The notes beneath the pieces are model-generated. The model was not told the DNA's origin. It ran no database searches and saw nothing but the letters and a program-made list of their open reading frames with translations. A program made the translations under genes and the position numbers. From assembly GCA_002787695.1 (NCBI GenBank), contig PCXL01000011.1, forward strand, positions 1 through 58,851: a DNA stretch of 58,851 nt. Direction: 5' to 3'. Source of the DNA: Candidatus Zambryskibacteria bacterium CG10_big_fil_rev_8_21_14_0_10_42_12. GTDB lineage: Bacteria; Patescibacteriota; Minisyncoccia; Phycocordibacterales; 1-14-0-10-42-12. Shown in pieces: positions 1 to 46,885 of this stretch (position 1 is the stretch's first letter; each line of letters begins with the position of its first letter).

Positions 1-1304
<1,304 letters not shown>

Positions 1305-1390
1305 GAGATGTGTTCATTAAATTGAACTTATCCGGTCGATTGTTCACCTTTGGTGAATACAGATGTGATATATCATCTTTAAAAAATATT

Positions 1391-1478
1391 TGACTGCGGG
1401 AAAGACCGCCCCTCGTTCGGTCGCAAGATCGAGCCGGGTAAGAAGGCAAAGCGGAACAAGACACAGTAGAGAAGTCAG
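1391..1478 (+). ncRNA. Unassigned structured segment in the 16S trailer
   Basis: TGACT...AGTCA closing stem; GCGG-gaaaga-CCGC and TTCGGTC-GCAA-GATCGAG hairpins; no family recognised. Confidence 0.25.
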
Positions 1479-1492
1479 TATATGTATATTTT

Positions 1493-1530
1493 AACGCAAA
1501 TGAACCCGCCTAGGCGGGTTCATTTGCGTT
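1493..1530. terminator. Perfect 38-bp palindrome, probable terminator of the 16S transcript
   Basis: AACGCAAATGAACCCGCC-TA-GGCGGGTTCATTTGCGTT followed by T-rich sequence. Confidence 0.7.
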
Positions 1531-1595
1531 TCATGTAGTTTTATGATATAATAAAAATCAGAGAGATGTGCGCAACCCGCACAAGAGGAGGAACC

Positions 1596-1817
1596 ATGGT
1601 TGATCATGGTTTTGACATTCGCAAGCCCCGAGAATTCCGGCCAAAGTTCTGGATTTATGGAGCGGGGATTGCGGTGTTCGGATTGAGCGCTGCAAGTGAA
1701 GGCAATGATGATTGGCACTGGGCCGCGTTGGTTCTGCTGATCTGGACTGCATGCTTCCCTCTATGCTGGGGGCTAGGGCGGAGTATTGCGAACTGGTATC
1801 GCACTGGACATTGGTAA
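1596..1817 (+). CDS. Small membrane protein, 73 aa, unknown function
   Basis: ATG 1596 preceded by GAGGAGG; two hydrophobic Trp-rich segments; TGaTATAAT promoter at 1544-1552. The ORF track starts at 1566. Confidence 0.55.
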   Translation: MVDHGFDIRKPREFRPKFWIYGAGIAVFGLSAASEGNDDWHWAALVLLIWTACFPLCWGLGRSIANWYRTGHW

Positions 1818-1899
1818 GTCCTGCGATGTCGAAAATCGGCCAGGGTGCTCCCGCACACCCAGGCCGTTTTTGTTTTAAAATAGAGACAGGAGGTCCTGT

Positions 1900-2094
1900 A
1901 TGAGAGATTTTTGTTGGAGCACATCGGGAGATTGTTGGGTACCTTGGAAATTCATTATTCTTATGGTTTTTGTGGTGTTCTTTAGTTTTTACCCAGTAAT
2001 GTTCGGTGTAATTTTGTTGTGCGTGTCAGGTTCTGGTCTTTTTGTCGAAATTATATTCTTAATTTCGACAAAACGAAGTCGGTTGAACCGATAG
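1900..2094 (+). CDS. Possible small hydrophobic protein
   Basis: 64-aa ORF with upstream AGGAGG; low-complexity hydrophobic composition, could be spurious. Confidence 0.25.
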   Translation: MRDFCWSTSGDCWVPWKFIILMVFVVFFSFYPVMFGVILLCVSGSGLFVEIIFLISTKRSRLNR

Positions 2095-2195
2095 AGGGCG
2101 TACTAATGGTTACATGGTGCGCTCTTTCTTAATATCTTGTTTTTAGCCTATTTTTTTGATAGTTTAGTGAAGCTAAATTAGTTTCTCTCCAGTGT

Positions 2196-2269
2196 GCGCG
2201 ATTAGCTCAGGTGGTTAGAGCGCGTCACTGATAATGACGAGGTCCCAGGTTCGAGTCCTGGATCGCGCA
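2196..2269 (+). tRNA. tRNA-Ile(GAT)
   Basis: Acceptor GCGCGAT/ATCGCGC; anticodon arm CGTCA-CTGATAA-TGACG; T arm CCAGG-TTCGAGT-CCTGG; CCA not encoded. Confidence 0.96.
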
Positions 2270-2296
2270 CACTGAGGAGGAACGTTTTTATTTTTC

Positions 2297-3709
2297 ATGT
2301 TTACAAAACACACCAAAATTGTAGCGACGATTGGTCCTGCGACAGAAAGCAAAGAAATGCTAGAAAAACTCGTTCTTGCGGGGCTTAATGTCATGCGCCT
2401 CAATTTTTCTCATGGTGATTTTGCTGAGCATCAAGCTCGTGTTGATAACTTGCGTGCAGTCTCAAAAAAACTCGATAGACCAGTTGCAATTCTCCAAGAT
2501 CTCTCTGGTCCTAAAATTCGTATTGGTGAATTTGATACAGAGCGGGTTGACCTTGAGGCGGGAAAGAAAATTTCATTAGTAACCGGCAAAAAATTTATAG
2601 GAAACGAAACGCGCGTATGGGTAAACTATCCAACACTCCATAAAGAACTTCATAAAGGAAGTATAGTATTCGTTGATGATGGAAAGAAAAAACTAATCGT
2701 GGAATCAATCAAAAAAAACGAGATCGCTTGTAAAGTTATCGTTGGAGGAAATACAAAAGGACGTCGTGGAGTAAATCTTCCAGGTGCATACCTCAAGACT
2801 AGTTCACTTACAAAAAAAGACAGAGAGGATTTACAATTTGGTATCAAAAATGATGTAGACTTTTTCGCACTTTCTTTTGTGCGCCAAGCGAAAGATGTTG
2901 TAGAGCTCCGCGATATTTTGCAGCAAGCAAAGTCTGATGCACAGATTATTGCAAAGATTGAAACAGAAGAGGCGATAGAAAATCTAGAAGACATAATTGC
3001 AGTTGCAGACGGTATCATGATCGCGCGCGGAGACTTGGCTATTGAGGTACCAGCAGAAAAGGTTCCGCTCTATCAAAAACGAATGATTGAACTGTGTAGG
3101 CAAGCAAATAAACCAGTGATCACGGCAACACAGATGCTTGAAAGTATGATTAATTCTCCGGTACCGACTCGTGCAGAAGTGTCTGATGTGGCAAACGCTA
3201 TTTTCGACGGAACAGATGCGGTGATGCTCTCAGAAGAAACAACACTTGGTTCTTATCCGGTTGAAGCGGTGTCTGTTATGGCACGTGTTGCAAATGAAGT
3301 AGAGACACATGGGAGAGCTCATTTTAAAAACGGTCACGAAAACAAAATGCTCTATGATGAATTGGCGCAGTCAGCACTTCGTATCGCTGGGGCGGTAGAT
3401 GCAAAAGCCATCGTAGCTATTACAGAATCGGGAAGTACTGCACGAGCCCTTGCGTCCAGAAGGCCTACGCAGCCTATTATCGCAGCTACAGGAGATTTTA
3501 AGACAGAGACACGTCTTACACTTTCTTTTGGTTGTTTTCCGCTCCATACGACAGACAAGGGTTCATTTGAGTCTGTGATGAAGCAGGTATCTCTTTTTGT
3601 AAAGACAAATAAGCTAGCTAAAAGGGGTGACAATATTGTAGTTATTTTTGGTGAACCAGTTGGCAAAAAAGGAACAACAGCAAATGCGGTTTCAGTGCAA
3701 TGTATTTAA
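2297..3709 (+). CDS. pyk: Pyruvate kinase
   Basis: TKIVATIGPA, RLNFSHG, DLSGPKIR (Lys variant typical of K+-independent enzymes), ARGDL, TQMLESM, RAEVSD, DAVMLS. Confidence 0.97.
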   Translation: MFTKHTKIVATIGPATESKEMLEKLVLAGLNVMRLNFSHGDFAEHQARVDNLRAVSKKLDRPVAILQDLSGPKIRIGEFDTERVDLEAGKKISLVTGKKFIGNETRVWVNYPTLHKELHKGSIVFVDDGKKKLIVESIKKNEIACKVIVGGNTKGRRGVNLPGAYLKTSSLTKKDREDLQFGIKNDVDFFALSFVRQAKDVVELRDILQQAKSDAQIIAKIETEEAIENLEDIIAVADGIMIARGDLAIEVPAEKVPLYQKRMIELCRQANKPVITATQMLESMINSPVPTRAEVSDVANAIFDGTDAVMLSEETTLGSYPVEAVSVMARVANEVETHGRAHFKNGHENKMLYDELAQSALRIAGAVDAKAIVAITESGSTARALASRRPTQPIIAATGDFKTETRLTLSFGCFPLHTTDKGSFESVMKQVSLFVKTNKLAKRGDNIVVIFGEPVGKKGTTANAVSVQCI

Positions 3710-3730
3710 TATCAGTAATACGTGATGTTA

Positions 3731-3759
3731 TTGACAAAAATATTTTCGTGTGATAGTGT
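3731..3759 (+). promoter_or_regulatory. Sigma70-type promoter of the GC-rich ORFan
   Basis: TTGACA-17 nt-TAGTGT with extended -10 TG. Confidence 0.6.
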
Positions 3760-3820
3760 TTCTCGCTAGAAGTTCGGACCCTCTCTTGCTTGGGTCTATT
3801 TTCAATTAGAGGTATAGGCC

Positions 3821-14379: not shown

Positions 14380-14853
14380 CATATACAAATAATATTTTTA
14401 CGAATCTACAAATGACTACAAATCGGAATGTGTCTAAAGAAATGGAAAAAGTCATTTACCCGCAATTATCCTATTCTCTTACAGGTATATTGTTTAAAGT
14501 TCATAATGAATTGGGACAGTATGCACGAGAAAAACAATATGGCGATTTGCTGGAGTCTTATTTAAAAGAGGCATGTATATCTTATAAACGAGAATTGAAC
14601 CTAGGAGATAGTGGTAATATTCTTGATTTTGTTATAGATAATAAAATTATCTTAGAATTGAAAGCGGTACGAGTGATCACGGGGGAGTCTTTTAGGCAGG
14701 TACAAAATTACCTACAGCAAAGTCACTTGAAGTTGGGTATATTGGTGAATTTTCGGGCAAAATATTTAAAACCTGCTCGAGTACTTCGAATTGATGGCCT
14801 GCATCATTTGTAGCCATTCGTTATAATTCGCATTATTTGTAGATTTGTATATG
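14380..14853. mobile_element. Stem-bracketed single-gene cassette carrying the GxxExxY gene
   Basis: Inverted repeats CATATACAAAT (14380-14390)/ATTTGTATATG (14843-14853) and CTACAAATG (14406-14414)/CATTTGTAG (14805-14813). Mobility is inferred, not shown. Confidence 0.5.
14412..14813 (+). CDS. GxxExxY protein (PD-(D/E)XK nuclease fold)
   Basis: VHNELG.YAREKQY (variant motif), DFVIDNKIILELKAV, QVQNYL, LGILVNF. Start could be 14442. Confidence 0.88.
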   Translation: MTTNRNVSKEMEKVIYPQLSYSLTGILFKVHNELGQYAREKQYGDLLESYLKEACISYKRELNLGDSGNILDFVIDNKIILELKAVRVITGESFRQVQNYLQQSHLKLGILVNFRAKYLKPARVLRIDGLHHL

Positions 14854-26731: not shown

Positions 26732-28021
26732 CTAGTCTACACGTTCTTTAAATTGTGTTTCCCAGTGTAAAAGTGGTCGAATGATCCCAGGAATTTTGCC
26801 AGTGTATTCGCCACGCGCACTTGTGCCGTCAAACGAATCAATAATATTAAATGCAACTGCATCGCGCTCTTCAAAGTGAACCGTAAATGGGGAGAGTGTG
26901 CTCATAGCTATCCAAACAGTATACCTGCCTTCTGATAGTAAATTACCTGGTATGGTTGCTGTGGTTGTATACATTCCTTTAGGACGTACTTTACCGCGCC
27001 ATGTTTTTTCATAATCACCTGCAACAAAAACGCAAATATTATTGTCATTATACAGGTGGTAATTTGGATATAATACATGTCCAGCCTCTTTGACTTCATA
27101 TGCAGCTTCAATGTCGATAGGGTGTCTAATATCAATCGAATCTGTTACTTTTTGATTCTGTTTAATCTTTACGGAGCGTAATGAAACAATGTTATCTCTA
27201 GACACTCTGTCAGCCCATTTCTTTGAGGCACGCGGACCAATATGAGAGTTCATGTAGAGATCAATTACGTCCTGAGTGTTTCCGAACATAACCACTTCTC
27301 CCTTGTTGAGTAGAATTGTCTTTTGGCAAAGTTGTCGAATGGCTCCCATATTATGACTCACGAACAAGATTGTGCGTCCTTGTTCTTGGGTCACTTCTTC
27401 CATTTTGCCGAGGCATTTCTTCTGGAACTCTGCATCACCAACGGCGAGTACTTCATCGACAAGTAAAATATCTGGTTCCATGTGGGCTGCAACAGAGAAG
27501 GCAAGACGTACATACATACCGGACGAATAACGTTTTACGGGAGTATCAAGGAATTTTTCAATGCCGGCAAATTTTACGATAGCATCAAAATTCTTTTCGA
27601 TTTCTGATTTTGTCATACCCAAGATGGCACCATTGAGAAAAATATTTTCTCTTCCTGTTAGTTCAGGATGGAAGCCGGTCCCCACTTCAAGCAAAGATGA
27701 AACTCTGCCGCGCATGATAACTTCTCCTTCTGTAGGTGGTGTAATACCAGTAAGTATTTTGAGTAGCGTTGATTTGCCCGCGCCGTTTGCACCAATAATA
27801 CCAATGACCTCTCCTTTTTCTATAGAGAGGCTAATATCTTTAAGTGCCCAGAATTCTTCTTTTTTAGAAAGGCCAATGGCGTCCTTTACCTTATGTGTGG
27901 CAAATCGAAATGGATTTTTAAATACATGAGCAAGCACATCACGAAGTGCGACATAACCCCCGCGCATATGCTGTATGTCGTATTTTTTTCCAAGATTTTT
28001 TATTTCGATAATCGGTTTCAT
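26732..28021 (-). CDS. wzt: Polysaccharide ABC transporter ATP-binding protein with Wzt C-terminal domain
   Basis: GANGAGKST, YSSGMYVRLAF, LLVDEVL. True start ATG 28021; the ORF-track extension to 28186 overlaps another gene. Confidence 0.94.
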   Translation of the reverse strand: MKPIIEIKNLGKKYDIQHMRGGYVALRDVLAHVFKNPFRFATHKVKDAIGLSKKEEFWALKDISLSIEKGEVIGIIGANGAGKSTLLKILTGITPPTEGEVIMRGRVSSLLEVGTGFHPELTGRENIFLNGAILGMTKSEIEKNFDAIVKFAGIEKFLDTPVKRYSSGMYVRLAFSVAAHMEPDILLVDEVLAVGDAEFQKKCLGKMEEVTQEQGRTILFVSHNMGAIRQLCQKTILLNKGEVVMFGNTQDVIDLYMNSHIGPRASKKWADRVSRDNIVSLRSVKIKQNQKVTDSIDIRHPIDIEAAYEVKEAGHVLYPNYHLYNDNNICVFVAGDYEKTWRGKVRPKGMYTTTATIPGNLLSEGRYTVWIAMSTLSPFTVHFEERDAVAFNIIDSFDGTSARGEYTGKIPGIIRPLLHWETQFKERVD

Positions 28022-28026
28022 ATAAG

Positions 28027-28445
28027 TAGTTTGTAAAGCCGAAAGTTCATAAAGTCTATAAAGTTTTGATAAATCCAGAAAGCATTTTTGATATCTCAAC
28101 TGATGCACCGTATGTCTTAACAAACTCTTTTTTTGAAATGTATTGTAATTCAATAGCCATATAGAGCATTGAGCGCACCTCTCCACAGGATCCTTTTGCT
28201 ATAAACAAAAAATATTTTAGTTCTTTGTTACTTTTTCTCTCGAAACCTTCGGCTATATTATTCATAATCGAAATTGAGGCTCGTTGAATCTGGTCTTTGA
28301 AACCAATATCTTTATGTTTCTCAAAAAGAGTATATACCAAAAGAGTCAGTTCTTTCGCTTTTTGCCATGCCATAATATCTTCAAATTTTTCTATTTTCAT
28401 ACTCGATGTTTACTTTTCACTTTATGAACTTTCTACTTTCAACTA
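28027..28445. mobile_element. Stem-bracketed single-gene cassette carrying the four-helix-bundle gene
   Basis: Perfect 15-bp IR GAAAGTTCATAAAGT (28041-28055)/ACTTTATGAACTTTC (28419-28433), imperfectly extended to 28027 and 28445. Mobility is inferred. Confidence 0.5.
28056..28400 (-). CDS. Four-helix-bundle protein (23S rRNA IVS protein / TIGR02436-like)
   Basis: FEDIMAWQKA, DQIQRASISIMNNIAEG, FLFIAKGSCGE, KML.GFIK.L. Confidence 0.93.
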   Translation of the reverse strand: MKIEKFEDIMAWQKAKELTLLVYTLFEKHKDIGFKDQIQRASISIMNNIAEGFERKSNKELKYFLFIAKGSCGEVRSMLYMAIELQYISKKEFVKTYGASVEISKMLSGFIKTL

Positions 28446-29267
28446 AATGATGTCTGCAAAATAACTTTCCACTTTTTTAAAATATGCGATACCGATAATC
28501 ATGATGACTATACAGACAGTAGAAGAGAGAAGTAAAAGAGCCCAATTGATTGGTGTGGTGTGTAGAAGTCCTGCACGAGCCGTCTGTACGACCCCCATCA
28601 TGGGGTTCAGTGCTAAAATCCAAGAATATTTCCCTGCGATACTTGCAGGGTAAATAACTGGTGTTACGAATAAAAGTAGTTGGATGAAAAAGGGGAGTGC
28701 GTAGCGTACATCACGATATTTTACATTGACTGCAGATAAGAATAAACCGGCTCCAACAGCGACGAAAAAAGTAATAAGAAGGAGCACTGGTAGGATAAGG
28801 ATTCCGGTAAGACTCGGAACATAGTGATAGTAGAACATCATGCCGACTAAAATAATACTTGCGAGTATAAAATCGACAAATTTCGTGATAACTGCCGAAA
28901 CCGGCAAAATCAAACGAGGAAAATAGACTTTGGTTACAATAGATTGATTGGCGATAAGTGCCATTGAAGTATCAGAGAGAGCTGATGAAAAGAACTGCCA
29001 AAAGAGGAGTCCTACATACACAAAAATAGGATATGGTACGCCGTCTGAAGGAATGCCTGCGAGTTTTCCAAAAAATATAGTAAAGATAACCATGGTGACA
29101 AAGGGTTGTAAGATCGCCCAAAGACCTCCGATAGCCGTTTGTTTATATCGCACTTTAATATCGCGCCACGATAAAAAATATAAGAGACCACGATAATCCC
29201 ACAGCTCTTTTATATCTCGTAAGCTAAATGTTTTCTTAGGGCGAATGACAGTAACATTCGTTCGCAT
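28443..29267 (-). CDS. wzm: Polysaccharide ABC transporter permease
   Basis: RDIKVRYKQTAIG..W, KVYFPR, KYRDV, TPVIYP, NPM.GVV. Confidence 0.94.
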   Translation of the reverse strand: MRTNVTVIRPKKTFSLRDIKELWDYRGLLYFLSWRDIKVRYKQTAIGGLWAILQPFVTMVIFTIFFGKLAGIPSDGVPYPIFVYVGLLFWQFFSSALSDTSMALIANQSIVTKVYFPRLILPVSAVITKFVDFILASIILVGMMFYYHYVPSLTGILILPVLLLITFFVAVGAGLFLSAVNVKYRDVRYALPFFIQLLLFVTPVIYPASIAGKYSWILALNPMMGVVQTARAGLLHTTPINWALLLLSSTVCIVIMIIGIAYFKKVESYFADII

Positions 29268-29349
29268 AGCGCCCACTATAGCAGAATTACGACTTTTTTT
29301 GAATGTCAGATATCTGTATTGTTACCTATATATATGTATACTAAAAGAC

Positions 29350-46205: not shown

Positions 46206-46237
46206 GGGCTTTTATCTCATGATATGATTTGAATATT

Positions 46238-46885
46238 ATGCATGCGCGTGATTATAAGCAGTTTGCACCAAACGAGTTTTACCATATTTACAATCGCGGT
46301 GTTGGTAAAATGAATATTTTTCTAGACGATGAGGATTACAATTTTTTTCTTACTCGACTCAAAGAGAACTTGTTTCCTAGTAGCATAAGTATGTCTAATA
46401 AAATAAGGAGAAAACTTTTGCCGGCAGGCTCATTTGATTTGGTTTGTTATTGTTTGATGCCAAATCATTTTCATCTTTTGTTTTTTCAAAAGACAGAGGT
46501 GTCAATTAGTGCGTTAATGTTGAAAGTTATGACGGGGTATGTGATCTATTTCAATAAAAAATATGATCGCGTCGGCTCGCTATTTCAAGATCAATTCAAA
46601 GCGGTATGTGTAAAATCTGACGAACAACTTTTATGGCTTTCTGCATATATTCACACAAATCCATCAGTTGCGCAGCTAGTATCTGATGATATGCAATATG
46701 CGTGGAGTAGTCTGAGGGAGTATATAACAAAAGATAGGGGTATGTGTGTGACAGATCATATACTGCAGTCATATCGTTCTCCGGCATACTACAAAAAACT
46801 GATGATGGAGGCAAAGAAGGTTATTTATGGAAATAAGAAAGATAAGGCGAGCACATCAGCTTTAGGGGCAGTGTTTGATCTGTAA
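46238..46885 (+). CDS. REP-associated tyrosine transposase (RAYT, IS200/IS605 Y1 HUH family)
   Basis: FYHIYNRGV, IFLDDEDY, YCLMPNHFHLL (HUH), YFNKKY.R.G.LFQ, YIHTNP (catalytic Tyr), YAWSS..EY; flanked by REP palindromes. Confidence 0.92.
   Translation: MHARDYKQFAPNEFYHIYNRGVGKMNIFLDDEDYNFFLTRLKENLFPSSISMSNKIRRKLLPAGSFDLVCYCLMPNHFHLLFFQKTEVSISALMLKVMTGYVIYFNKKYDRVGSLFQDQFKAVCVKSDEQLLWLSAYIHTNPSVAQLVSDDMQYAWSSLREYITKDRGMCVTDHILQSYRSPAYYKKLMMEAKKVIYGNKKDKASTSALGAVFDL

Follow-up and report, generated by a model that had tools for sequence, protein, structure and literature searches.

For about 30 years, neither an origin nor a function has, to our knowledge, been established for the intervening sequences (IVSs) of bacterial rRNA and the S23p/IVS protein, and we know of no function assigned to PF05635, which is among the larger small-protein families of this kind. 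ORF-bearing 23S IVSs occur in Coxiella burnetii and Leptospira (PMC4990558; Ralph and McClelland 1993, as cited therein). The helix-45 IVS of C. burnetii has a 28-bp stem, inside which it is cleaved by RNase III, and its S23p start is preceded by tandem heptamers (GACAGAT) (PMC4990558).

Here, we analyzed an O-polysaccharide locus of Patescibacteria in a stretch of DNA of 58,851 nucleotides, referred to as the window, in which a gene for a four-helix-bundle (4HB) protein is located between wzm and wzt and is bracketed by inverted arrays of a short repeat. The closest known relative of this arrangement is the ORF-bearing 23S rRNA IVS. The two have in common the protein family encoded in the loop, tandem heptamer-type repeats just upstream of the ORF start, and terminal inverted repeats with a stem of ~26-28 bp containing one mismatch and a bulge; in addition, they share a size of ~430 nt, a sporadic distribution, and a suspected mobile origin. 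In contrast to the IVSs, the present copy lies between two protein-coding cistrons and not in an rRNA helix, so that no fragment must remain functional. Furthermore, its arms are arrays on both sides, and RNase III cutting is only predicted here. Compared to the IVS literature, the precise recent exchange, the junction hot spot, and the residue-base rule described below are new. The original prediction knew of no account of such a class, and in the literature we likewise found none, either for the class or for its form in operons.

Four further systems invite comparison. Avd, the accessory variability determinant of diversity-generating retroelements (DGRs; 4DWL; DGR RNP 8UB7 and related entries), has the four-helix-bundle fold as well, and its solved relatives are homopentamers. 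Since Avd is a nucleic-acid- and RT-binding cofactor, a nucleic-acid-binding role is plausible for the 4HB protein by analogy. However, sequence identity amounts to ~10%, no reverse transcriptase was found among the neighboring genes within ~8 kb, which speaks against a DGR component, and inverted repeat arrays are not a feature of DGRs. Integron cassettes resemble the present unit in being small, promoterless single-gene units that are inserted in sense and expressed by read-through, and also in their hairpin-forming imperfect inverted repeat, the interchangeable passengers per site, and their spread across taxa. In contrast, the present cassette has repeats on either side of its gene and not a single 3' attC, these repeats are built as tandem iterons of 7-9 nt, and the sites are stop/start junctions of ordinary operons. 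No integrase-like family was detected among the 10 ORFs scanned around the cassette, where neither an IntI integrase nor attI or a Pc promoter was found.

Heptamer repeats of the GGGNATC type from Xanthomonas and Nostoc are transcribed and consist of tandem 7-nt units, of which about four copies are preferred (PMC4692102). They often form inverted pairs that converge, occur preferentially between ORFs of like orientation at sites within 50 bp of stops and starts, and have been read as G-quadruplex formers, with no link made to a four-helix-bundle gene (PMC4692102). The present units differ from them in being A/T-rich (AAAGT-N) and in bracketing a gene. Finally, TRAP is a ring-shaped RNA-binding attenuator with 11 (G/U)AG repeats separated by 2-3-nt spacers. 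As an analogy only, implying no membership, a short repeated core with variable spacers of 2-4 nt and a unit number close to the expected number of oligomer subunits are found in the present arrays too; the fold is unrelated, however, the present arrays occur in both orientations, and binding is only putative here.

Layout of the cassette and its insertion between wzm and wzt

All genes of the wzm-4HB-wzt stretch are encoded on the minus strand (Table 1). The original prediction had described a stem that begins at the wzm TAG and stops 5 nt short of the wzt ATG, with a perfect 15-bp core abutting the stop of the passenger, and the coordinates of both were confirmed. The whole unit comprises 425 bp. 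Four AAAGT units are found inside the 45 nt upstream of the 4HB ORF, while the first ACTTT unit already lies within the ORF, in its final codons (K-T-L-stop). The wzt gene starts with the ATG at 28021..28019; we rejected the GTG at 28186, which gives the longest ORF. The Wzt_C match of the encoded protein (22.3 bits) is below the cut-off of 30.4.

Table 1 Features of the wzm-wzt junction and other elements of the window (positions of the window).
Feature	Position	Strand	Description
wzm	28443..29276	-	ABC-2 permease, 277 aa; PF01061 (ABC2_membrane), 61 bits
wzm TAG stop	28445..28443	-	Outermost pairs of 5' arm
5' arm	28419..28445	-	TAGTTGAAAGTAGAAAGTTCATAAAGT; array of AAAGT-N units
5' arm, by units	28419..28445	-	TAG-TTGAAAGT-AGAAAGT-TCATAAAGT
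Spacer before 4HB start	28401..28418	-	One further unit (GAAAAGT); no strong Shine-Dalgarno
Passenger 4HB gene	28056..28400	-	114 aa; PF05635/TIGR02436
4HB TAG stop	28058..28056	-	Directly abuts 3' arm
3' arm	28027..28055	-	ACTTTATGAACTTTCGGCTTTACAAACTA; array of N-ACTTT units
Spacer, stem base to wzt ATG	28022..28026	-	5 nt, CTTAT
wzt	26732..28021	-	429 aa; ABC_tran and weak Wzt_C match
Inverted repeat	28035-28055 / 28419-28439		21 nt, 90% complementarity (repeat search)
Perfect core of stem	28041-28055 / 28419-28433		15 bp
Exchanged block	28014..28448	-	95% identical to L161; flanks 78% on each side
GxxExxY cassette	14380..14850	+	GxxExxY / PD-(D/E)XK gene 14412-14813
Arms of GxxExxY cassette	14399-14413 / 14835-14849		TAC(A/G)AAT and ATT(C/T)GTA
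16S rRNA	1-1304		Sole rRNA of the window
Periodic hairpin in 16S rRNA	about 815-950		CAGCTTA units

The neighboring genes within ~8 kb encode radical SAM proteins, FkbM methyltransferases, glycosyltransferases, a cytidylyltransferase, and Wzy_C. Within this distance of the cassette, we found no gene for a transposase, a recombinase, or a reverse transcriptase. As had been expected, wzm and wzt are usually adjacent. In 61 of the 81 Wzm-related loci, they are separated by a gap of -4 to 42 nt with no intervening gene. Empty alleles, the search for which had been proposed as a check, are thus available and include that of L001, the sister of the window. The empty junctions have spacers of 3-10 nt with no visible Shine-Dalgarno sequence, which implies translational coupling of wzm and wzt. 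These comparisons show that the cassette is an insertion into wzm-wzt.

We also looked for a cassette-less variant in the source samples, where no contig joined wzm directly to wzt; one low-confidence joint, with a side of 24 nt, resembles a gene-less hairpin of another organism. Inspection of the present locus, L161, L043, L055, and the empty junctions revealed no convincing target-site duplication; the alignment of L039 with L055 gave no information on this point, as the L055 sequence breaks off shortly behind the cassette. An IS- or MITE-type element was rejected, as the cassette carries no transposase, the arms have no flanking direct repeat, and the iteron arrays differ between copies.

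When folded in isolation, the arms give a stem of 26 pairs that includes one G.U and is interrupted by one mismatch and two 1-nt bulges (-27.1 kcal/mol, z = -8.8 compared to 200 shuffles), and the stem is retained in the MFE fold of the entire 471-nt region. The pairing score of the flanks (Smith-Waterman) was 34, compared to a shuffle mean of 13.4 and a maximum of 28; as none of 1000 shuffles reached 34, a chance repeat is ruled out. The best flank score among the 45 other genes of the window was 26.

The 4HB protein and the repeat units

The passenger had been predicted to be an IVS-type four-helix-bundle gene with structural kinship to DGR Avd. This assignment holds: the protein scores 113.5 bits against PF05635 (cut-off 33.8) and 110 bits against TIGR02436 (cut-off 24), and phmmer matched it to 2GSC with E = 8e-11. 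Its fold as predicted by AF2 (pLDDT 96.8) consists of helices 10-26, 32-54, 58-84, and 90-113. The model has a TM of 0.89 to XCC0516 (2GSC, pentameric) and of 0.82-0.84 to BT_0352 (2RLD), and the TM of 0.78 to Avd, including Avd within the DGR RNP, is consistent with the proposed kinship. The 2GSC and 2RLD structures hold five chains each, and by analogy with these and Avd the 4HB protein probably forms a pentamer. The polar motif R-x3-S-x3-N-x2-E of helix 2 is present (R40, S44, N48, and E51), and its residues are invariant or nearly invariant in 36 homologues; the leading G of the published family motif GxxRxxxSxxxNxxE (PMC3936711) corresponds to Q37 in the present protein. In the model, helix 3 is N-capped by Asn58. 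The dN/dS of the gene is ~0.2, which shows that the protein is under purifying selection.

PF05635 is large; a first search already yielded thousands of homologues. About 80 close homologues from many phyla have arms of AAAGT-N units, each arm comprising 3-5 of them at a spacing of 7-9 nt. Cultured carriers of close homologues with arms include Segatella hominis BCRC 81118 (L086) and Labilibacter sediminis CG51 (L117). Among 76 close homologues, the density of AAAGT upstream of the gene was 4.1 per 100 nt and that of ACTTT downstream was 3.4, compared to 0.2 in the background. Inverted repeats, for which the original prediction had suggested a survey, are enriched around these homologues, since at least three units on each side were present in 49 of the 76 but only in 0.9% of background windows. 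An rRNA context was found for none of the 20 homologous loci scanned.

A comparison of protein and repeat positions revealed a correspondence between residue 58 and the base that follows AAAGT. Of the 415 units that accompany an Asn58 protein, 72% have T at this place, 18% have A, and 4% have C, whereas 79% of the 202 units that accompany Asp58 have C. The mutual information between residue 58 and the base is 0.84 bit, a value reached in none of 300 permutations, and among the residue/unit-position pairs, significant mutual information was confined to residues 57-58 with position +6. The tree needs ~7 switches of residue 58, which the unit base follows; the rule is drawn from related sequences, however, and the well-supported branches force only 2-3 switches. 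Blind predictions on new loci were correct in six out of six cases. These data show that one protein residue co-varies with one repeat-unit base, and the 4HB protein apparently recognizes the repeats of its own cassette.

We favor, with a probability of roughly 0.6, the interpretation of the locus as an IVS-type junction cassette, i.e. a promoterless, discrete 425-bp unit composed of a PF05635 gene and inverted arrays and inserted in sense into the coupled wzm-wzt gap. With an AAAGT-N array upstream and an N-ACTTT array downstream, the gene would have entered the 3-10-nt stop/start gap sense-wise. The protein, as a pentamer, may bind the units of its own arms with approximately one unit per subunit and with residue 58 as the putative contact of the base that follows AAAGT. 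Transcription would occur by read-through from the host operon. In the transcript, the arms would close a stem of ~26 bp, by which the wzm stop is brought beside the wzt start, and this stem would be a plausible substrate of RNase III, as in the 23S rRNA IVSs of the PF05635 family.

Alternatively, in line with the 'mRNA intervening cassettes' of the original prediction, the arms might act purely as RNA, which we consider unlikely. They would then fold the polycistronic mRNA, looping out the passenger or allowing RNase III to excise it, and would thereby keep wzm and wzt coupled; the units would have no protein partner, and the element would be an mRNA intervening sequence. The stem between the wzm stop and a point 5 nt short of the wzt ATG (-27 kcal/mol) agrees with this explanation, and its geometry is identical in L043, L167/168, and L171. 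So do the coupling implied by the empty 3-10-nt junctions that lack a Shine-Dalgarno sequence, the proven excision of an rRNA IVS of the PF05635 family by RNase III, and the sense orientation of 64 out of 64 cassettes between co-oriented neighbors, with none in antisense. Additionally, cognate arms pair better than non-cognate ones (scores of 39.3 and 30.5, respectively), but the latter value is already high, since both arms are arrays of one shared unit, which accounts for most of the complementarity. In 63 cassette stems, 54 G:U compared to 67 A:C mismatches were counted (p = 0.28); with no sense-strand excess of G:U, selection on an RNA helix is unsupported. Furthermore, single-orientation arrays and solo arms exist, and the co-variation of residue 58 and the unit base is unexplained without a protein reader. 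The only matching RNA-labelled run, X11 from another environment, contained one 224-nt contig with 97% identity to the gene and an arm fragment; it shows no ends or joints and may stem from DNA contamination. Overall, the evidence points to arms that are binding sites of the cassette's own protein, within an exchangeable DNA unit, at least as much as it points to the RNA explanation.

Exchange of the cassette and the wzm-wzt hot spot

The same cassette is present at the same site in L161, a relative from lake water. We found 407 of 427 nt to be identical (95%), including 43 of 45 and 33 of 34 nt in the arms, compared to 78% in the flanks (232 of the last 297 nt of wzm and 144 of the first 185 nt of wzt). 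Accordingly, dS was 0.15 in the cassette but about 2.0 in wzm and saturated in wzt. On the wzm side, the nearest flank mismatch precedes the stop codon by 4 nt, and on the wzt side it follows the ATG by 6 nt; the step in identity falls within 3-5 nt of the arms, which led us to reject a transfer by homologous recombination with long flanks. The alignments show that the cassette was exchanged much more recently than its neighbor genes diverged, with the dS contrast drawn from one pair, and that it moves or is exchanged as a discrete unit bordered by the outer arm ends. The dS contrast could also have arisen if the two genes at its sides had been replaced, the glycan locus being prone to recombination.

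Hosts whose wzm genes are 86-93% identical at the nucleotide level differ in the gene at the junction, which is a 4HB gene in L043, a MazF-like gene in L024, an NYN gene in L017, and a truncated GxxExxY remnant in L038. Further 4HB cassettes at wzm-wzt were identified in L096, L103, L116, L134, L143, L157, L167/168, and L171. The suggested non-random placement from stop to start is thereby substantiated, with the same junction used in at least 10 other genomes. The wzm-wzt cassettes are scattered in the 4HB tree and have at least four independent origins. This shows that the wzm-wzt junction is a hot spot occupied independently by different cassette lineages and passengers.

The original prediction regarded hairpin-bracketed cassettes as a general class and pointed to a GxxExxY gene and a periodic hairpin in the 16S rRNA of the same window. 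Both exist (Table 1). The GxxExxY cassette lies between the stop of a T4SS-ATPase-like gene and the start of a glycosyltransferase gene, and its arms are real but weaker than those of the 4HB cassette, as 1 of 1000 shuffles reaches their score. The idea of a class gains from the relatives, in which GxxExxY cassettes with their own TAC(G/A)AAT arms share the wzm-wzt junction.

The exchange could also be that of a DNA mobile element with a helper in trans, an explanation that we regard as doubtful. The arrays would fold as ssDNA or cruciform and act as integration and excision sites, analogous to integron attC, IS200/IS605 ends, or homing, with the 4HB protein in an accessory role like that of Avd for the DGR reverse transcriptase. 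The enzyme would be encoded elsewhere or, in nuclease-bearing cassettes (PD-(D/E)XK, MazF, NYN), by the passenger itself. An exchanged block bordered precisely at the arm ends would be expected of such an element, and different passengers at one junction of near-identical hosts and one chimera of a 4HB-type 5' arm and a MazF-like gene are in agreement with it. The same is true for paralogous cassettes at unrelated sites of one MAG (L095/L126), 87%-identical 4HB genes with unrelated flanks in different phyla, gene-less hairpins of AAAGT units at other junctions, which resemble non-autonomous copies, and a Y1 (IS200-like) gene in the window. However, there is neither a target duplication nor a recombinase linked to any examined cassette, and no filled/empty polymorphism was seen in the source population. 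No close relatives were found in IMG/VR or INPHARED phages, and plasmids yielded only distant homologues (47% identity or less). Strict sense orientation is not required by this explanation, which would need selection to account for it.

The four passenger types at wzm-wzt (4HB, GxxExxY nuclease, solo MazF-like toxin, and NYN RNase) are all small nucleic-acid-directed proteins, and the genes flanking the homologues are enriched for surface polysaccharide genes. Together with the presence of PF05635 genes inside cas loci (PMC3936711), this might suggest a slot for small, interchangeable defense or addiction genes that benefit the host, for example by phage defense near surface-glycan genes, with the arms being secondary. 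We consider this improbable, as the arrays are missing from the MazF-like and NYN inserts, the unit-specific arms and the residue-base rule are left unexplained, and cassettes are also located in housekeeping operons such as rpsG-fusA and beside PrgI genes. It is hardly credible that the 4HB gene, although intact, under purifying selection, and part of a coherent polysaccharide locus, is simply a regulatory gene that the exporter operon has inherited vertically, next to an inverted repeat that is due to chance or resembles a terminator, since this is contradicted by the empty sister locus and the absence from most relatives, the dS contrast (0.15 versus about 2), the identity borders, the recurrence of the gene with its arms in unrelated operons of many phyla, and an inverted repeat far beyond chance.

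Implications for the PF05635 family

Beyond the junction cassette at the present locus, we put forward a wider proposal, tentatively and against somewhat unfavorable odds. PF05635 proteins would be oligomeric, base-specific readers of tandem repeats, and arrays and gene together would constitute transposase-less cassettes that occur across phyla and home precisely into coupled stop/start junctions. As part of this proposal, the first residue of helix 3 would set the base after AAAGT, with Asn specifying T or A and Asp specifying C, and the cassettes would be tolerated because they ride on the host transcript. The rRNA IVSs would then represent the rRNA-resident subset, and gene-less heptamer hairpins the non-autonomous subset.

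The same unit of a gene and inverted arrays lives in ordinary operons of many phyla, and the residue-base correspondence makes the question of the rRNA IVSs testable. If the rule holds, it would provide a small, orthogonal, and programmable protein/repeat pair. If the wider proposal is true, it would offer an explanation for the abundant heptamer repeats between co-oriented genes. In addition, the finding bears on the question of how Patescibacteria, with their very small genomes, tolerate gene insertions into translationally coupled pairs.

The cassette between wzm and wzt

A four-helix-bundle gene (4HB; PF05635/TIGR02436) separates wzm from wzt in a surface-polysaccharide locus (radical SAM/SPASM, FkbM methyltransferases, glycosyltransferases, cytidylyltransferase, Wzy_C) of a Patescibacteria (CPR) bacterium sourced from groundwater. 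The gene is flanked by inverted arrays of short units, AAAGT-N upstream and N-ACTTT downstream. A repeat finder aligned these arms over 21 nt at 90% complementarity, and a 15-bp perfect core abuts the 4HB stop codon. Closed by a tetraloop, the arms folded into 26 pairs (-27.1 kcal/mol, z = -8.8), and the MFE fold computed for the entire region contains this stem too. The flank pairing score of the cassette was 34, compared to a maximum of 28 in 1000 shuffles and of 26 among 45 other window genes. The original prediction of a stem that runs from the wzm stop to 5 nt before the wzt ATG, with its core at the stop of the passenger gene, was thus correct in every detail according to coordinates, repeat search, folds and shuffles.

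Features of the window and gene-less hairpins of compared loci
Feature	Position	Strand	Remarks
wzm	29276..28443	minus	ABC-2 permease; TAG stop 28445..28443
5' arm of 4HB cassette	28445..28419	minus	
4HB passenger ORF	28400..28056	minus	114 aa; PF05635 113.5 bits, TIGR02436 110 bits
3' arm of 4HB cassette	28055..28027	minus	ends 5 nt short of wzt ATG
wzt	ATG at 28021	minus	ABC_tran domain; Wzt_C match weak, below cut-off
Insert in 16S rRNA gene	815-950		~130 nt
Region of the 16S to tRNA-Ile spacer	1305-2300		~890 nt
GxxExxY cassette	14380-14850		PF13366, PD-(D/E)XK
IS200-like Y1 transposase gene	46229-46885		RAYT-type
Gene-less AAAGT/ACTTT hairpins	L084:870-960; L113:2880-2960, 3665-3775; L112:1-100; L143:1725-1800, 3570-3740; L148:4990-5070		

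Two further genes of the window carry inverted repeats. The GxxExxY gene lies between TAC(A/G)AAT-type arms, and its cassette takes up all the space between a T4SS coupling-ATPase-like gene, from its stop, and a glycosyltransferase gene, up to its start. Next in the window by score of its flanking inverted repeats (26) comes the IS200-like Y1 gene, in keeping with REP-like flanks; these repeats bear no relation to the AAAGT units.

Insertion and recent exchange at the wzm-wzt junction

The closest homologue of the window 4HB protein is P0001 (93% identity), encoded on the lake-water contig L161, where its neighbours are again a gene for an ABC-2 permease and wzt. Comparison of the two loci revealed 78% identity in the last 297 nt of wzm (232/297; dS ~2.0 over the whole gene, 274 codons), 95% from stop to ATG (407/427; dS 0.15 in the ORF) and again 78% in the first 185 nt of wzt (144/185; dS saturated). 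The arms with their spacers were as similar as the gene (43/45 identical positions on the 5' side, 33/34 on the 3' side), and dN/dS of the passenger was ~0.2. Both steps in identity lie no more than 3-5 nt from the arm ends, with the last mismatches of the flanks at 28449 and 28013, so that the borders of the exchanged block are the outer arm ends and no flanks were co-transferred. By this sequence contrast, the cassette appears to be much younger than the flanking wzm and wzt, which implies that at least one of the two lineages acquired it, or had it replaced, long after their divergence. Replacement of both flanking genes instead, with breakpoints exactly at the cassette, is less parsimonious and would likewise single out the cassette as a discrete unit. 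The window cassette is a promoterless, sense-oriented discrete unit that was exchanged recently.

Other pairs also offer evidence that points to spread of such cassettes: within a single MAG, 4HB genes located at unrelated sites are 88.5% identical (L095/L126), and those of a Spirochaetota and a Bacillota MAG are 87% identical with unrelated flanks (L143/L159). No target duplication was found at the window cassette, nor any recombinase or reverse transcriptase among the genes within ~8 kb of it. No close relative turned up in phage collections, and plasmids carried only homologues of at most 47% identity.

Our survey of the junction covered 81 loci, namely the window and 80 metagenomic loci encoding relatives of Wzm (65-81% identity). 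As predicted, wzm and wzt are normally adjacent, with no intervening gene in 61 of the 81; the gene-free spacers span -4 to 42 nt, mostly 3-10 nt, and a Shine-Dalgarno sequence is not evident. In the Wzm tree, the gene-free locus L001 is the sister of the window (support 100/99). These comparisons identify the 4HB cassette as an insertion into a tight junction. The exact stop-to-start placement recurs: another 4HB cassette sits at exactly this junction in L043, and further ones, scattered in the 4HB tree, were found there in L096, L103, L116, L134, L143, L157, L167/168 and L171.

The sequences surveyed show that this junction is a hot spot for small inserted genes of several kinds. GxxExxY/PD-(D/E)XK genes with their own TAC(G/A)AAT/ATT(C/T)GTA arrays, the same kind of cassette and unit as at the GxxExxY gene of the window, occupy it in L012/13, L052, L054 and L055, and a truncated GxxExxY remnant was found in L038/40. 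PemK/MazF-like genes are present in L024 and L002/3, an NYN-domain gene in L017, and an apparent solo AAAGT-type arm has been retained in L020/22. The wzm genes of L043, L024 and L017 are 86-93% identical at the nucleotide level, yet their passengers differ. At least four changes of the GxxExxY label and two of the 4HB label are needed on the Wzm tree.

Several details of these junctions were observed in addition. The last 3'-arm unit supplies the wzt start and first codons in some cassettes (L043:2223-2300; L171:745-790), as in L043, where wzt begins with ATG GAC TTA TCT compared to ATG TCA AGC in sister loci. The MazF/PemK-like inserts (L003:2000-2086; L024:2660-2718) have no adjacent antitoxin gene. 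A 3' GGAGGCCGAAGCC hairpin motif is common to both, as is a wzt start rebuilt in the same way (ATG TCA AGC). The MazF-like gene of L002/L003 is preceded by a 4HB-type 5' arm, the only such arm there, and the arrangement resembles a chimeric cassette. A long conserved hairpin, GCACCG-(N)-TTAAGGAC(G/A)AAACCTTAA-(N)-GGTGC, lies 3' of the NYN gene (L017:3560-3640) and again between two array blocks in L052 (3890-3960), and is thus another small structured element of the junction. The 42-nt spacer of L001 (911-953), the closest gene-free Wzm relative of the window, carries a GC-rich hairpin, TCATTCCCGC-GAAA-GCGGGAATC; the junction hence also gathers small gene-less hairpins of other kinds.

A cassette class and the co-variation of protein and repeat unit

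We further analyzed 80 loci that encode proteins 61-75% identical to the window 4HB. All were taken from species-representative genomes, which belong to Patescibacteria, Bacteroidota, Spirochaetota, Omnitrophota, Pseudomonadota, Bacillota and other groups. On average, AAAGT occurred 4.1 times per 100 nt upstream and ACTTT 3.4 times downstream, compared to 0.2 in the background and 0.5 in the opposite orientation. At least three units on each side were present in 49 of 76 loci, but in only 0.9% of background windows. Units are spaced by 7, 8 or 9 nt with a modal count of 3-5 per arm, and the first ACTTT unit often lies within the conserved C-terminal K-T-L-stop codons. Wherever the neighbours were mutually co-oriented, the cassette was in sense (64/64; antisense 0); co-oriented triplets have a background rate of 67%. 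Among the flanking genes, ABC2_membrane (9) and ABC_tran (7) are the most frequent, followed by genes for glycosyltransferases and sugar-nucleotide genes, and PrgI as well as rpsG/fusA were also found. The design of gene plus inverted arrays is general for the subfamily of the window 4HB. Together with the GxxExxY cassettes at wzm-wzt, this enrichment across phyla upholds the proposal of a general class of hairpin-bracketed cassettes.

Gene-less hairpins of AAAGT/ACTTT units at other junctions of 4HB-bearing contigs look like non-autonomous copies; the base that follows AAAGT in them agrees with residue 58 of the 4HB protein encoded nearby. In L148 (4475-4560), at least 13 tandem ACTTT(C/T)(A/C/T) heptamers follow one orientation with no inverted partner nearby.

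Cognate arms pair better than arms from different cassettes (mean score 39.3 compared to 30.5, p = 4e-9; shuffled arms, 16.3), which indicates that the shared unit accounts for most of the complementarity and that a modest further part is specific to the cassette. On the sense strand, 63 stems contained 54 G:T and 67 A:C mismatches, giving no sign of RNA-helix selection in the sense transcript. The original interpretation is therefore upheld in part: the class and the placement at the junction stand, and the putative 'intervening' role at the RNA level gains no backing from this mismatch comparison.

Residue 58 of the 4HB protein, the first of helix 3 in the model (pLDDT 96.8), tracks the base after AAAGT. 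Among 415 units accompanied by Asn58, 72% continue with T, 18% with A and 4% with C, and among 202 units accompanied by Asp58, 79% continue with C; cassette consensus counts were N-T 42, D-C 23, N-A 3 and others 4. The mutual information of 0.84 bit was reached in 0 of 300 permutations, and no other pair of residue and unit position approached it. Residue 58 switched about seven times on the 4HB tree, two to three of these forced by strongly supported branches, and the unit base follows: the predicted base was present in 23/26 Asp58 and 47/54 Asn58 cassettes, with one clear exception (L093). For six further proteins picked by residue alone, the predicted base was right in all six. The window protein has Asn58, and its units continue with A, T or G and a single C. 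Protein and repeat unit therefore co-vary in the sequences compared, and the simplest reading would be that the 4HB protein binds its own units base-specifically. Its fold matches pentameric XCC0516 (TM 0.89), BT_0352 and DGR Avd, including Avd in the DGR ribonucleoprotein; short cores, variable spacers and ~4-5 units would be compatible with an oligomeric ring that sits on a single strand.

Relation to rRNA intervening sequences and proposed mechanism

The window cassette is not an IS/MITE: it contains no transposase, its arms are not flanked by a direct repeat, and they are iteron arrays that differ between copies. It is probably neither an integron cassette nor part of a DGR, as its tandem units lie on both sides of the gene instead of in one 3' attC, and the 10 ORFs scanned within ~8 kb included no integrase-like family and no reverse transcriptase. 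The closest known entity is the ORF-bearing intervening sequence (IVS) of 23S rRNA, which has the gene family, the stem and tandem repeats in common with the window cassette. In contrast to that entity, which is defined by residing in rRNA, the window cassette does not, and no rRNA was found in 20 scanned 4HB-cassette loci. The window cassette is thus an IVS-type element outside rRNA. Full-text literature searches yielded no description of a class of cassettes at operon junctions, nor of a rule linking residue 58 to the unit base.

The window itself contains a periodic hairpin insert in its 16S rRNA gene, with CAGCTT(A/T) units facing (T/A)AAGCTG-type units and a closing stem CCCCCGCTTAAGC / GTTTAAGCGGGGG. 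This insert has no ORF and hence represents an empty array hairpin in rRNA; its units are unlike those of the 4HB cassette. The spacer to tRNA-Ile holds two small hydrophobic ORFs, and protein genes from 2297 instead of a 23S rRNA gene follow tRNA-Ile, indicating that the rRNA genes of this organism are unlinked, as is common in CPR bacteria.

Heptamer repeats forming inverted pairs between co-oriented genes were described in Xanthomonas and Nostoc with no link made to a PF05635 protein (PMC4692102), and PF05635 genes were noted inside cas operons (PMC3936711). The Coxiella IVS of the PF05635 family has a 28-bp stem and GACAGAT heptamers before its ORF, and RNase III cuts within the stem were demonstrated (PMC4990558). 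At the wzm-wzt junction, the cassette would be expressed by read-through from the host operon and its 4HB protein would bind the arm arrays, and in the transcript the stem would place the wzm stop beside the wzt start and might serve as an RNase III substrate.
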